This document shows positions 2,854 through 53,855 of a stretch of DNA of 64,000 nt, piece after piece (within the stretch, counting starts at the first letter, position 1; every line of letters begins with the position of its first letter). Below the pieces are notes generated by a model. The model searched no databases and was not told where the DNA came from. It worked only from the letters and a program-made list of their open reading frames with translations. Location: positions 64,001 through 128,000 of the forward strand of contig CAVYSW010000003.1 of NCBI GenBank assembly GCA_963771275.1. The letters are read 5' to 3'. Position numbers and translations under genes: made by a program. This DNA is from an uncultured Gemmatimonadales bacterium (GTDB lineage Bacteria > Gemmatimonadota > Gemmatimonadetes > Gemmatimonadales > GWC2-71-9).

Positions 2854-3521
2854 CAGTGTGTCCGTCGGTAGAACGTCACGCCGTCTCCCCGGATCCGCAC
2901 GGCCCCCACGGTCTCCGGCACCGCGATCGGGATGCTCCCGTCGGTCCCCCCGGTGATCGCATTCACCAGCCGCGGCACCAGCGACGCCGGAAAGGGAAAG
3001 TCGCGCACGGCAAACTCCTCGGGTCGCCACGCGACCACGCCGGGGCGCGCCACCACCGCGCCGCCGATCATCCGCAGCGGCTCGCGCGGCGCGAGTACCC
3101 CCGCCAGCGGCCCCAGCAGCTCCCGGCCCAGGCGCTCCGTCCGCACCTGCGCCGTGAGCGTGAAGCGTTCCGGCTCGAGCACCACCGCGAGCGAGTCGAG
3201 CGACGCGCGCGCGCGCGCGTCCAGCCCGTCGGCCACCAGGGCCGCCAACTCGGCGGCGGAGAGCACCACCGAATCCGGCCCGTCACGCCGCGCCATCCGC
3301 GCCTCCGCGCGGCGCGCCGCCCGCAGGGCCGCCTCGGTCGGCACGCCGATCGAGCGGGTGGTGTCGCGCGCCGCCCCGTGCAGCACTCGCGCGACGACGG
3401 CGCGCGTCGCGCCCCCCAGCTGGCTGCGATACTGGTACGCCACGACCCCGCCCAGCACCAGCAGCGTGGCGCACCCCACCGAGGCGAGCAGGGTGCGGAC
3501 GCAGCCCCCGCCGCCGCTCAC
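2853..3521 (-). CDS. hypothetical membrane-anchored protein
   Basis: N-terminal hydrophobic helix; start/stop overlaps with both neighbours. Confidence 0.75.
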   Translation of the reverse strand: MSGGGGCVRTLLASVGCATLLVLGGVVAYQYRSQLGGATRAVVARVLHGAARDTTRSIGVPTEAALRAARRAEARMARRDGPDSVVLSAAELAALVADGLDARARASLDSLAVVLEPERFTLTAQVRTERLGRELLGPLAGVLAPREPLRMIGGAVVARPGVVAWRPEEFAVRDFPFPASLVPRLVNAITGGTDGSIPIAVPETVGAVRIRGDGVTFYRRTH

Positions 3522-51714: not shown

Positions 51715-53357
51715 ACATCTACCTCGACGTCGTCTCGCCGGCGGCGAAAGAGGCCGGCGACTACGCCAGCGTCTACGACCTGGAGAACCACGGCCTCACG
51801 AATCTCCGGCGGGTCTACTGGAACCTCCCGACCCCCGCGCTCTACGAGGAGGTCGTGTTCCGCTCGGAGGGCCGGCTCTCCCACCTGGGCCCGATCGTCG
51901 TCAGCACCGGGAAGCACACCGCGCGCGCCGCGGCCGACAAGTTCGTGGTGCGCGAGCAGACCACCGAGCAGCACGTCTGGTGGGGCCAGTACAACCGGCC
52001 GTTCACCGAGGAGAGCTTCAGCGCGCTGCACGCCCGCCTGGTGGGCTACCTCCAGGGACGCGACGTGTTCGTGCAGGACTGCTACGCCGGCTCCGACCCC
52101 GAGTACCGGCTGCCGATCCGCATCATCGCCACCCGGGCGTGGCACGGACTGTTCGCGCGCACGATGTTCCAGCGCATCCGGAACCTCGACCAGCTGAAGA
52201 AGCACGTCCCGGAATTCACCGTCATCGCGGCGCCCTCGTTCATGGCGTCCCCGATGATCGACGGCACGCGGACCGAGACGTTCATCATCATCAACTTCCG
52301 GGAGCGGCTGGCCATCATTGGCGGATCGGCGTACGGCGGCGAGATCAAGAAGACGATCTTCACCGTGCTCAACTTCCTGCTGCCGCTCCAGAGCGTGCTG
52401 CCGATGCATTGCTCCGCCAACGTCGGCGCCGGCGGCGACGTCGCCCTGTTCTTCGGCCTCTCCGGCACCGGCAAGACCACCCTCTCGGCGGACCCCAAGC
52501 GCGGGTTGATCGGCGACGACGAGCACGGCTGGAGCGACAACGGCGTGTTCAACTTCGAGGATGGCTGCTATGCCAAGGTGATCCGGCTGTCGCCCACGGC
52601 GGAGCCGCAGATCTTCGCCTGCACGCGCCGCTTCGGCACCATCATCGAGAACGTCGTGATGGATCCCCTGTCGCGGCGGCTCGACCTGGACGACGACATC
52701 ATCACCGAGAACACCCGCGCGGCCTATCCGCTCGACTACATCGAGAACGCGGTGCCCGAGCGGCGGGCCGGCCATCCCAAGAACGTCATCTTCCTCACGT
52801 GCGACGCGACCGGCGTGATGCCGCCGATCGCGAAGCTCACGCCCGACCAGGCGATCTACCACTTCATCTCCGGCTACACCAGCAAGATCGCGGGCACGGA
52901 GGTGGGCCTCGGCATCGAGCCCGAGATCACGTTCAGCACCTGCTTCGGCGGCCCGTTCATGGTGCACCACCCGTACAAGTACGCCGAGCTCCTGAAGGCG
53001 CGGATGGTCAAGCACGGCGTGGACTGCTGGCTGGTGAACACCGGCTGGACGGGCGGCCCGTTCGGCGTGGGCAAGCGCTTCAGCATTCACCACACGCGGG
53101 CGCTGCTCAACGCCGCGCTCGAGGGCAAGCTGGCCAAGGTGCCGTACAAGCAGGACCCGGTGTTCGGCTTCGCGGTCCCGGCGACCTGCGAGGGCGTCCC
53201 GGACTCGATCCTCGATCCGGCCAACACGTGGGGCAGCCGGGACGAGTACTTCCGCAAGTACGACGCGCTGGCGGCGCGGTTCATCGAGAACTTCAAGCTG
53301 TTCAAGGACGGGTGCCCGGAGCACGTGATCCAGGCCGGCCCCAAGCGGTTGAAGTAA
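51711..53357 (+). CDS. pckA: phosphoenolpyruvate carboxykinase (ATP)
   Basis: YGGEIKK, MHCSAN, GLSGTGKTTLS, LIGDDEHGW, ENTRAAYP, LVNTGW. Confidence 0.97.
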   Translation: MNIYLDVVSPAAKEAGDYASVYDLENHGLTNLRRVYWNLPTPALYEEVVFRSEGRLSHLGPIVVSTGKHTARAAADKFVVREQTTEQHVWWGQYNRPFTEESFSALHARLVGYLQGRDVFVQDCYAGSDPEYRLPIRIIATRAWHGLFARTMFQRIRNLDQLKKHVPEFTVIAAPSFMASPMIDGTRTETFIIINFRERLAIIGGSAYGGEIKKTIFTVLNFLLPLQSVLPMHCSANVGAGGDVALFFGLSGTGKTTLSADPKRGLIGDDEHGWSDNGVFNFEDGCYAKVIRLSPTAEPQIFACTRRFGTIIENVVMDPLSRRLDLDDDIITENTRAAYPLDYIENAVPERRAGHPKNVIFLTCDATGVMPPIAKLTPDQAIYHFISGYTSKIAGTEVGLGIEPEITFSTCFGGPFMVHHPYKYAELLKARMVKHGVDCWLVNTGWTGGPFGVGKRFSIHHTRALLNAALEGKLAKVPYKQDPVFGFAVPATCEGVPDSILDPANTWGSRDEYFRKYDALAARFIENFKLFKDGCPEHVIQAGPKRLK

Positions 53358-53371
53358 GCATCCCGTCACAA

Positions 53372-53449
53372 TACGAACGAGCCGGACGGTGATAACGCCG
53401 CCCGGCTCGTCTTGCGCAGCAAAACTGGCTGCGGACTCGCACCCTGTGG
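53372..53449 (-). ncRNA. predicted anti-tRNA small RNA
   Basis: Own promoter; 5' CCACAGGGUGCGAG is complementary to the adjacent tRNA anticodon arm; hairpin CGCAGC-CAGUUUU-GCUGCG carries the complement of its D-loop; ends in a terminator-like hairpin. Confidence 0.7.
53377..53410. terminator. hairpin, likely bidirectional terminator (pckA and the minus-strand sRNA)
   Basis: ACGAGCCGG (53377-53385) / CCGGCTCGT (53402-53410). Confidence 0.7.
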
Positions 53450-53453
53450 CACG

Positions 53454-53482
53454 ATGATAGGAAGAACGTAGTGCGACGTCAA
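53454..53482 (-). promoter_or_regulatory. sigma-70 promoter for the anti-tRNA sRNA
   Basis: TTGACG (53482-53477), 17-nt spacer, TATCAT (53459-53454). Confidence 0.8.
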
Positions 53483-53493
53483 CAGCACGGCGG

Positions 53494-53577
53494 TGCTGGC
53501 GGTGGGATTCGAACCCACAAGAGCCGAAGCTCCACAGGGTGCGAGCCTGTTGCGTTTGCCAGTTTCGCCACGCCAGC
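53494..53577 (-). tRNA. class II tRNA with tRNA-Leu-like body and CGC (Ala) anticodon
   Basis: GCTGGCG TG GCG AAACTGGCAAA CGC A ACAGG CT-CGC-AC CCTGT G GAGC TTCG GCTC TT GTGGG TTCGAAT CCCAC CGCCAGC A; all stems pair. Confidence 0.93.
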
Positions 53578-53855
53578 ACCTCCACAGCGGCGAGCCACTG
53601 ACAACCCGAAGGCGAGAGACGGAGTACTCGCACCCGTTCCGTGCCGCGCGTCAAGATTGTGCGCTTTGGCCATGATCAGGGTTACCGATTCCTCGCCGAG
53701 ATGACCCGGATCGCGCCGGCGGGCAGGGCCGCCCCGGACCTTCGGGGCTGCCTCCAACCGTCCCGGCCTCCTACCTTTCCCGGCGAGTCGCACCATCGCT
53801 GCACGCGCACCCACGGAGGCTCGGTGACCGCCCGGTCCTTCCGCACGCTCCCGCC

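Follow-up and report, generated by a model that had tools for sequence, protein, structure and literature searches.

In a 64,000-nucleotide stretch of contig CAVYSW010000003.1 from an uncultured Gemmatimonadales bacterium (the window), we found that a tRNA gene on the minus strand, with a leucine-type body and the alanine anticodon CGC, belongs to a conserved family of leucine-type tRNAs with non-leucine anticodons. The tRNA gene is followed by a gene for a small RNA that is built to pair with the 5′ half of the tRNA, and the leader of the tRNA precursor is likewise built to pair in cis with this 5′ half and closes on the trailer; we call the whole arrangement a module. An earlier note on this DNA had described a single tRNA that would be charged with leucine and insert it at GCG codons. 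Its reading of the body as leucine-type rather than alanine-type stands, whereas the gene proves to be one member of a large family and, if it miscodes, is a gated and not a free-running miscoder. We place about even confidence in the interpretation that the module is such a gated miscoder, that is, a missense tRNA that would insert leucine but is kept inactive by an anti-tRNA RNA of its own.

A leucine-type tRNA with an alanine anticodon

ARAGORN called a tRNA-Ala(cgc) at 53492-53577 on the minus strand, and the Rfam model RF00005 matched 53494-53577 end to end (model positions 1-71 of 71) with 57.8 bits against a gathering score of 29. This is the sole tRNA and the sole Rfam match in the window. 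The acceptor stem consists of G1-C72, C2-G71, U3-A70, G4-C69, G5-C68, C6-G67 and G7-C66. A D stem of 3 bp plus A13/A22 closes a D loop (AACUGGCAA) that contains A14, A15, G18, G19 and A20a, and the 5-bp anticodon stem ACAGG/CCUGU carries the loop C-U-CGC-A-C, with C34, G35 and C36 at 53543, 53542 and 53541. The 13-nt variable region is made of 1 nt, a 4-bp stem with a UUCG loop and 2 nt, the last base being U48; its stem-loop (GAGCUUCGGCUC) is identical in a genuine tRNA-Leu(UAA) of a relative (L008). The T arm, GUGGG-UUCGAAU-CCCAC, is followed by A73 (53494) and by C74 and C75 at 53493-53492, after which the next base is g, so that the CCA end is only partly encoded. The cloverleaf, loop, variable arm, A15:U48, A73 and U3:A70 thus read as the earlier note had given them, on the minus strand, which it had not named.

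The body is leucine-type in A73, A15:U48, G18G19, A20a, C2:G71, the long arm and the 3-bp D stem. According to the accessible text of PMC9976931, Escherichia coli leucyl-tRNA synthetase (LeuRS) relies on A73, A15:U48, G18G19, A20a and D/T-loop contacts, and recognises neither the anticodon nor the sequence of the long arm. The tRNA has the body of a bacterial tRNA-Leu throughout and departs from it in the anticodon, CGC in place of NAG or YAA. It lacks both marks of a tRNA-Ala, having U3:A70 instead of G3:U70 and a 13-nt variable region instead of a class I form. Leucine-type body and alanine anticodon are therefore joined in one hybrid-identity tRNA. With the anticodon loop masked, its identity to the genome's own Leu tRNAs was 0.48-0.62 and to the Ser tRNAs 0.46-0.51; at 0.58 the Tyr tRNA was as close as two of the Leu tRNAs. 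For the leucine-type bodies as a set, identity to the genome's own tRNAs reached 0.62-0.72 for Leu, 0.51-0.59 for Ser and 0.47-0.61 for Tyr.

The genome (3.86 Mb in 11 contigs, 70% G+C) contains all five tRNA-Leu isoacceptors separately from this tRNA, and it has the normal tRNA-Ala set for which the earlier note had advised a check: GGC, CGC and TGC, each 73-74 nt long and each with G3:U70. We compared the window with contigs from three public runs, X1, X2 and X3, of which the best-matching DNA run may itself be the window's source sample. A search for sequencing runs returned 21 and no RNA run that contains the sequence. The X1 and X2 contigs span the tRNA gene and the X3 contig covers tRNA positions 26-84, anticodon included. 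The anticodon was identical in all three, where a leucine anticodon in the reads would have spoken against the hybrid. This agreement, together with 100 relatives, rules out a sequencing error. The only differences in 53300-53750 were 53424 A>C and 53489 G>C in X1 and 53560 C>T in X2. The X2 change, given for the plus strand, converts G18 of the tRNA to A, and this copy may be decaying in the X2 strain.

Anticodons of the module family match the commonest non-leucine codons

Five copies were found in the genome with ARAGORN, three with the anticodon CGC and one each with GGC and GGT. A BLAST search with a 281-nt module against 41 relatives gave matches in 15 genomes, mixed with T-arm matches, and was replaced by a covariance model built from 19 modules (R1). 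R1 returned 60 matches of at least 85 bits in 30 of the 151 genomes of the window's order, a denominator that includes two unpublished genomes (G096 and G108), both without such a match. The 85-bit line was set after inspecting the matches, genuine tRNA-Leu scoring at most 77 bits; because some true modules score below it (for example L100, at 75.4 bits), 30 of 151 is a lower bound. The carriers comprise 14 of 62 genomes in family f1, 13 of 27 in f3 and 3 of 62 in f2, and the spread is patchy, with one to six or more copies per carrier genome. Applied to class and phylum samples, R1 found no module outside these three families. Matches of 75-77 bits in family f5 were rejected as ordinary tRNA-Leu(CAA/UAA) with an encoded CCA.

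A pattern scan of one genome per species, which asked for the D-arm consensus and pyrimidine-A at positions 36-37, gave at least 121 loci. Among the matches listed, the carriers were metagenome-assembled genomes (MAGs) titled Gemmatimonadales, Gemmatimonadaceae and Gemmatimonadota, as well as one titled Deltaproteobacteria (L138) and one titled Gammaproteobacteria (L182); the tRNAs of these last two are typical of the Gemmatimonadales family, so they may lie on mis-binned contigs. The scan also brought up the planctomycete MAGs described below. The fetched loci held 86 distinct class II tRNAs of at least 80 nt, namely 12 genuine tRNA-Leu, one tRNA-Ser and 73 family tRNAs, the last defined by excluding leucine anticodons, hence none of the 73 reads a leucine codon. 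Adding the pattern-scan loci brought the number of distinct module tRNAs to at least 101, found in soil bacteria and mostly in Gemmatimonadales MAGs. Their anticodons were CGC (32), CAC (29), GGC (15), GAC (7), GTC (6), GGT (4), CTC (3), AGC (2), TTC (1), TGC (1) and GCG (1), with 28 of the 101 coming from the scan that is biased to C or T at position 36. GCC occurred in one further copy only (L222). Each of the seven most used non-leucine codons of the genome (GCG, GCC, GGC, GTG, GAG, GAC and CGC) has a family anticodon, and GCG is the most used codon of all, at 69 per thousand. Anticodon choice in the family is not random.

Module copies are 70-78% identical to one another, and ten other module loci scored 45.7-60.1 bits against RF00005. 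In the cloverleaf of 19 members 98.9% of cells were paired and both sides had changed in 12 of 24 pairs; none of 500 shuffles came as high, and slid controls gave 35-50%. A15, G18, G19 and A20a are invariant in the 19 copies, and A73 is present in 72-73 of the 73 distinct family tRNAs. The anticodon loop keeps to the rules of such loops, with A37 after the anticodon in 73 of 73, a pyrimidine at position 33 in 73 and at position 32 in 69, and C at position 36 in 68; these rules are kept while the stems vary freely. Some modules lie as pairs 0.5-5.5 kb apart with different anticodons (for example CGC + GAC, CAC + CGC, CAC + TGC), as at L045 (G109:C7:7031-7855), L077 (G097:C89), L197/L198 and G061:C8:1398292 + 1403820. 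Nine long 'tRNAs' of 83-98 nt that ARAGORN also called in the genome were set aside: they resemble neither the family nor any normal tRNA, were not found by R1 and are probably false positives in 70% G+C DNA (Table 1).

A predicted small RNA complements and co-varies with its own tRNA

The earlier note had seen that the anticodon region is mirrored in two flanking complementary copies and had taken these as evidence against a sequencing error. Both copies exist, at 53436-53449 and 53627-53635. They amount to more than a safeguard against error, however, being parts of an antisense small-RNA gene and of a self-complementary leader that co-vary with the tRNA. The first copy, CCACAGGGTGCGAG, is an exact match of 14 nt that lies 42 nt downstream of the tRNA. 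It coincides with the 5′ seed of the small RNA (CCACAGGGUGCGAG), which complements tRNA nucleotides 33-46, a stretch that runs from the anticodon loop through the 3′ strand of its stem into the beginning of the variable region. A separate, strong sigma-70-type promoter lies 10 nt past the tRNA and matches the consensus at 10 of 12 positions; the promoter scan found this one site where 0.1 were expected in shuffles. Across 19 modules the -10 element keeps the form T-A-n-n-n-T, with A120 invariant and T119 and T124 at 90% or more. Starting at the complementary seed, the transcript would have a length of about 75 nt. It is predicted to fold into three hairpins (-46.9 kcal/mol, z = -4.85). The first of them (53416-53432) resembles an antisense copy of the D arm and is also antisense to the 5′ strand of the acceptor stem; a GC hairpin of 14 bp (53379-53408) precedes a U-rich tail. 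A strict terminator pattern gave no site in 53300-53800, and we call the GC hairpin terminator-like because of its fold and conservation.

The same layout recurs in the other copies. All four intact copies of the genome have an exact complement of 11-14 nt to their own anticodon arm within 60 nt behind the tRNA, and relatives have exact complements of 12-20 nt about 40-60 nt downstream. Four family tRNAs were without a matching small RNA (m2/L013, two in L077, and L080). Because a plain cut-off on duplex energy is unspecific, with 6 of 12 genuine Leu tRNAs reaching -24 kcal/mol or lower against their own GC-rich flanks, we put weight on comparisons of cognate with non-cognate partners and on counts of base pairs. 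In 19 modules, the cognate duplex of tRNA and small RNA averaged -37.7 kcal/mol versus -20.4 (s.d. 6.2) for non-cognate combinations. The cognate small RNA was the best partner for 15 of the 19 tRNAs and ranked second or third for the other four, behind small RNAs of near-identical orthologues only. Co-folding 69 pairs gave a mean gain of -24.2 kcal/mol for cognate partners (69 of 69 at or below -5) versus -7.0 for non-cognate ones; the gain for the window's own pair was -22.6 kcal/mol. When four small RNAs were compared against all tRNAs of the genome, each bound its own neighbour best, and the real tRNA-Ala(CGC) was a preferred target of none.

Covariation supports the duplex itself. RNAalifold, run on the joined tRNA and small RNA, paired tRNA columns 25-39 and 5-14 with the small RNA. 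In the 19 modules, 91.8% of cells in this pairing were paired and 12 of 25 pairs were changed on both sides, compared with 29-47% in slid controls. The doubly changed pairs include anticodon positions 34 (C-G in 9, G-C in 7) and 35 (G-C in 13, A-U in 3). As both the cloverleaf and the duplex of tRNA and small RNA co-vary, both folds are maintained. Rfam 15 had no family for leader or small RNA; with matches up to E values of 0.5-1 allowed, it recognised nothing except the tRNA in the window region and in ten module loci.

Outside the window, the minus strand at G000:C5:15275-15393 (L017, about 3001-3119) has a small-RNA gene that is an orphan, with no tRNA next to it. It has a promoter-like TTGACT...ATCGTG, a seed with GAGTGCGAG, the same hairpin and a terminator, and pairing of this seed with the loop CUCGCAC of the tRNA described above would still be possible.

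The precursor leader is built to pair with the tRNA and to close on the trailer

The roughly 70-90 nt upstream of the tRNA are conserved across modules. They contain a second, degenerate stretch that is antisense to the anticodon and D regions; in the window, this element is the perfect 9-mer GGGTGCGAG at 53627-53635. The duplex of a leader with its own anticodon arm had -25.7 versus -19.9 kcal/mol for non-cognate arms, the own leader had a median rank of 8th of 56, and an exact complement of the tRNA's own positions 33-37 was found in 9 of 56 leaders versus 6.4% in controls. When RNAalifold was run on 56 precursors, it set the 5′ end of the leader against the trailer. This helix co-varies, with column 31:209 being GC in 31, CG in 18 and UA in 4 of the 56, and it occurs in variants such as GCGGC/GCCGC, GCCAG/CUGGC, GCUGG/CCAGC and GGUUGG/CCAACC.

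U precedes G1 in 61 of 73 copies, and RNase P prefers U at this position. At the other end the family keeps A73-C-C, followed by C or G and never by A. The genuine tRNAs of the genome mostly lack an encoded CCA too, the discriminator being followed by T, directly or with one C in between, and CCA is encoded only in tRNA-Tyr and tRNA-Sec. (The genome has, besides tRNA-Sec, a tmRNA with the tag ANTDLALAA.) Bacillus RNase Z is reportedly blocked by C-C after the discriminator, so the precursors may mature by another, possibly slower, route.

Genomic surroundings, decay and modules in Planctomycetota

The coordinates of the features described here are collected in Table 1.

Table 1. Features of the window's module and positions of related loci
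Feature	Position or loci	Strand	Basis or remark
Class II leucine-type tRNA, anticodon CGC	53494..53577	minus	ARAGORN and Rfam RF00005
5′ leader of the tRNA precursor, about 70 nt	53578..53649	minus	alignment of 21 and 56 modules
Leader 5′ helix strand GCGGC	53643-53647	minus	
Small hairpin in leader	53598-53616	minus	
Weak -10-like CACAAT	53656-53661	minus	by eye; not called in promoter scan
3′ trailer, directly after A73-C-C	53485..53491	minus	GCCGU (53487-53491) pairs with leader GCGGC
Sigma-70-type promoter of small RNA (TTGACG, 17-nt spacer, TATCAT)	53454..53482	minus	promoter scan
Predicted anti-tRNA small RNA, about 75 nt	53372..53449	minus	complement, fold, covariation
Further CGC copies	C3:143434 and C3:1869917		ARAGORN
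GGC copy	C9:161273		ARAGORN
GGT copy	C10:82432		ARAGORN
Rejected long ARAGORN 'tRNAs'	C1:6508, C3:818716, C3:951562, C6:102494, C8:5074, C9:345501, C10:157418, C10:536400, C10:841877		probably false positives
Kinase-linked loci	L004, L015, L016, L019, L021, L028, L036, L037		at looser distance: L024, L039, L050, L104
Planctomycete module loci	L148/L230, L227, L160, L164/L231		
Partnerless loci, Solirubrobacterales/Actinomycetota	L107, L122, L141, L152		
Partnerless loci, Dehalococcoidia	L123, L167, L175		
Partnerless loci, Azospirillum and a MAG	L113, L196		
Partnerless locus, alphaproteobacterial MAG	L126		

The window's copy lies between a PEPCK gene and a glycoside-hydrolase-like gene, and the other copies of the genome adjoin tig-clpP-clpX, MacB/FtsX and amino-acid permease genes. 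No integrase or transposase stands beside any of the five copies. We found no constant protein neighbour among 20 flanking open reading frames compared with Pfam, 17 of which fell into unrelated housekeeping families and three of which were unmatched. Of the 36 modules with enough flanking sequence, 8 have a gene for a Ser/Thr protein kinase (Pkinase, in many cases with TPR repeats) no more than 1.3 kb away, and in four of these eight it is divergent from the tRNA at a distance of 156-279 nt; with 49 such kinases in the genome about 4% would be expected by position alone, and related loci are not independent. The permease neighbour is shared by the GGT copy m5 and by L009, which has the anticodon GGC; one seed covers both anticodons through G-U pairs. 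At least this one locus is inherited within the genus.

One of the CGC copies, m2, has decayed (G000:C3:143356-143522, L013 3001-3089), 26 kb past the end of the window. A C at position 3 is mismatched with A70, 2 nt are inserted after the variable arm and the T loop reads TTCGTGT. The match between its small RNA and the anticodon arm is lost (duplex -19 kcal/mol), and the module scores 85.5 bits with R1.

The layout is not confined to the Gemmatimonadota. At least three MAGs of Planctomycetota, one of them with two copies, have a leucine-type tRNA (GTC, CTC or TTC) followed by a promoter, a seed, an anti-D-like hairpin and a terminator. Two of the seeds (L160 and L164) pair with the 3′ strand of the anticodon stem and the variable arm, or with the variable arm alone. 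With the loop masked, these tRNAs were 0.68-0.75 identical to genuine planctomycete Leu tRNAs and 0.61-0.64 to the Gemmatimonadota modules, which in such short sequences gives only a hint of an independent origin or of adaptation to the host. One MAG has the motif cagacgactca in three leaders, those of its two modules and that of its genuine tRNA-Leu(CAA) (L236).

A proposed gated miscoder and its alternatives

How the module might work can be outlined from its parts. A precursor of about 165 nt would hold the tRNA between a mutually pairing leader and trailer. Maturation would proceed through an RNase P cut at U-1/G1, trimming to CC and addition of A. The free mature tRNA would then be charged by LeuRS and, because that enzyme ignores the anticodon, leucine would be put in at GCG. 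The small RNA, and the leader in cis, would pull the stems of the anticodon and D arms apart and form with them a duplex of about 25 bp, in which the tRNA would stay uncharged or unread, or be degraded. The toxin would in this way be a stable miscoding tRNA, and the antidote an anti-tRNA RNA that is made all the time, so that a stop in small-RNA synthesis would lead to alanine-to-leucine errors across the proteome. Were a phage, or loss of the locus, to end transcription, the small RNA would decay, the tRNA would mature and leucine would appear at up to 7% of codons. By conjecture, the most likely role is an RNA-only switch that resembles toxin-antitoxin or abortive-infection systems. Such a switch fits better than a tuning device because the top codons are targeted, paralogous pairs are orthogonal, the multi-copy spread is patchy, decayed pairs and an orphan antidote occur, and toxic allo-tRNAs provide a precedent. 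The broader proposal of a new class of such systems, with a leucine-body tRNA as toxin that miscodes at the host's most used Ala, Val, Asp, Glu or Gly codon, an anti-tRNA small RNA as antidote and a self-inhibiting leader, in at least two phyla (Gemmatimonadota and Planctomycetota), is one we make tentatively and regard as possible but somewhat doubtful.

Several points weigh against a miscoding tRNA. CCA is never encoded, with CCC after A73 in 39 of 73 copies, CCG in 18 and other triplets in 16; the CC lies at the foot of the leader-trailer helix, and the free mature 3′ end is assumed. In 20 of the 73 family tRNAs, not including the window's copy, C33 replaces the near-universal U33, which argues for weak decoding; unusual bases at position 33 have been reported in natural miscoding tRNAs, according to the accessible part of a 2024 review (PMC11415595). 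The identity rules for LeuRS come from E. coli and not from a member of the Gemmatimonadota, and no second, dedicated LeuRS was found in the genome, which has one full match (an 831-aa frame) and a weak 22-bit match in a 939-aa frame. The G18>A change in X2 would hurt the D/T-loop contact that LeuRS needs. Folding energies leave out the tertiary structure and modifications of tRNA, the neighbouring genes are housekeeping genes and not defence or mobile genes, and genomes carry several copies even though leucine at 6.9% of all codons would do extreme harm.

The 3′ end held in its helix without an encoded CCA, and the copies with C33, would suit a pair that does not take part in translation. The tRNA-shaped RNA would then be a scaffold, decoy or sponge for the small RNA, or the reverse, or each pair would be a private regulator of mRNAs, of a tRNA-binding enzyme or of RelA (through uncharged tRNA in the A site). 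Taking both variants together, we find this, the main rival reading, doubtful, if worth serious consideration. It would account for a small RNA that is antisense to nearly the whole 5′ half of the tRNA, beyond what masking of the anticodon needs, for the two planctomycete seeds that can pair with the variable arm and not the anticodon, and perhaps for the recurrent kinase gene. It does not explain why the rules of the anticodon loop (Y33, A37 and C36) are kept while the stems are free, why the anticodons match the top non-leucine codons, or why A73-C-C, the T loop, G18G19 and U-1 show the conservation of functional tRNAs, and the genome's real tRNAs include no better target for the small RNA. 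If the tRNA does decode, the same gated insertion of leucine, at Ala, Val, Asp or Glu codons, might serve as a graded stress response that diversifies the proteome, a purpose also suggested for tRNA-ProX of Streptomyces. Its chromosomal position beside housekeeping genes and the inheritance of the m5/L009 locus within the genus would fit such regulated mistranslation, and encoded miscoding tRNAs are held to be possibly beneficial in the accessible part of the review cited above (PMC11415595). We nevertheless judge this unlikely: targeting of the most abundant codons would maximise damage rather than tune it, and a patchy multi-copy spread, decayed pairs and an orphan small RNA resemble selfish or defence modules.

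Non-ribosomal users of tRNA are known in bacteria, and the retained leucine identity elements would also suit a charged tRNA that donates leucine outside the ribosome, through a tRNA-dependent transferase for cell wall, lipid or peptide natural product. This is very improbable, as no transferase gene recurs beside the modules, and it would leave the constrained loop, the match to codon usage and the antisense partner unexplained. We give hardly any credence to a relic or artefact, whether a tRNA-Leu pseudogene, an assembly error or the att repeats of an integrated element. Integrative elements do duplicate parts of tRNA genes, and direct repeats lie beside the tRNAs of L106 and L217. The flanking copies described here, in contrast, are inverted, within 60 nt and accompanied by a promoter and terminator; compensatory changes in 19-69 diverged copies keep both cloverleaf and duplex; the contigs of three runs agree; and copies 70-78% identical are not recent identical repeats. 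Duplication of an att site at the tRNA gene was rejected on the same grounds, the flanks being inverted and not direct, with no integrase among the neighbours.

Relation to known tRNAs and RNA antitoxins

Hybrid-identity tRNAs have so far been known as rarities (tRNA-ProX, allo-tRNA and nev-tRNA). The nematode nev-tRNAs combine a leucine-type class II body with Gly or Ile anticodons and are charged with leucine in vitro. They are alike in having a leucine-type class II body with a non-leucine anticodon, and are eukaryotic; we know of no antisense partner for them. The tRNA-ProX/tRNA-ProA genes of Streptomyces reportedly have proline identity, are class I and have a special prolyl-tRNA synthetase as partner, whereas the module family has leucine identity, an RNA partner and no second LeuRS. 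As the accessible text of the tRNA-ProX paper (PMC10404621) has it, they too are an encoded hybrid-identity family with Ala or other anticodons in high-GC soil bacteria, for which deliberate mistranslation was proposed. Leucine, variable arm and antisense did not occur in a term search of that text. Allo-tRNAs are the other natural bacterial class II long-arm tRNAs in which body identity and anticodon disagree; in the part of the paper available (Mukai et al. 2017, PMC5389517), they come from Acidobacteria and others, are serine-type, act as toxic missense suppressors that with leucine anticodons insert serine and kill E. coli, often lie near toxin-antitoxin loci and are proposed as 'regulatory noncoding RNAs'. 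A term search of this part gave no occurrence of antisense or complementary. Allo-tRNAs have a serine-type G73 and acceptor/T stems of 8/4 or 9/3, a 12-bp branch, whereas the module family has A73 and, supported by covariation, 7/5; the window's tRNA accordingly falls outside the allo-tRNA definition. The two also occur in different phyla.

Type I (hok/sok-like) and type VIII (CreT/CreA, SdsR/RyeA) systems oppose an RNA antitoxin to a harmful RNA. The module is like them in a strong promoter of its own, adjacent co-varying partners and orthogonal paralogous pairs, and, as in RNA-antitoxin systems, the pairing RNA is adjacent and cognate-specific, with compensatory changes, its own promoter and a terminator-like hairpin. 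The self-inhibiting fold of hok mRNA would parallel the module's leader. It differs in that the presumed toxin is a tRNA and not a peptide mRNA or a tRNA-sequestering RNA, that the antitoxin lies downstream on the same strand and is no true cis-antisense RNA, and that toxicity is inferred. Pairing of small RNAs with tRNA transcripts also serves regulation in the E. coli 3′ETS-leuZ sponge and the Streptomyces bldA antisense transcript. There a spacer is the partner, or the pairing RNA is read from the other strand of the same DNA, whereas the module uses a separate gene that targets the tRNA body (anticodon and D arms) with locus-specific covariation. In the full-text literature, with subscription-only papers outside the scope, we found no leucine-type bacterial tRNA family with non-leucine anticodons and no tRNA with a dedicated antisense small RNA, with or without a self-complementary leader. 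The accessible parts of the 2024 review of mistranslating tRNAs (PMC11415595) and of a 2020 review of non-canonical tRNAs (PMC7609411) describe nothing alike.

The labels tRNA-Ala, tRNA-Val, tRNA-Thr and so on that pipelines give to genes of the family are almost certainly wrong. If the module is a gated miscoder, it would be a way for a cell to keep safely a tRNA that rewrites its commonest codon, and tRNA would be added as a kind of toxin in toxin-antitoxin and phage-defence biology. Deliberate mistranslation would become directly testable, with miscoder and off-switch at one locus and more than 100 natural variants with orthogonal pairings, and synthetic biology would gain a natural programmable "anti-tRNA" switch in which the seed sets the silenced tRNA. 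Even without decoding, a conserved duplex system of tRNA and small RNA in two phyla is an undescribed type of RNA-RNA regulation.

Leucine-type tRNAs without a visible partner

Leucine-type tRNAs with non-leucine anticodons and no visible antisense partner were seen in Solirubrobacterales, Actinomycetota, Dehalococcoidia, Saccharibacteria and Alphaproteobacteria MAGs and in Azospirillum. These class II tRNAs have the anticodons ATC, TTC, ACC, AGC, CTC, TGC and CGC; some have an encoded CCA and some are in tandem. ARAGORN missed two copies at the alphaproteobacterial locus L126, both with a CGC loop and a variable arm of about 24 nt. In two Saccharibacteria MAGs (L106 and L217), a leucine-type tRNA with the anticodon ACC and an encoded CCA is followed by a terminator hairpin, beyond which part of its own anticodon arm is directly repeated, as at an integration site. 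In an Acidimicrobiia MAG (L180), four tandem repeats of about 103 nt lie upstream of a genuine tRNA-Leu(UAG), and each repeat opens with the first 27 nt of that tRNA before it diverges.

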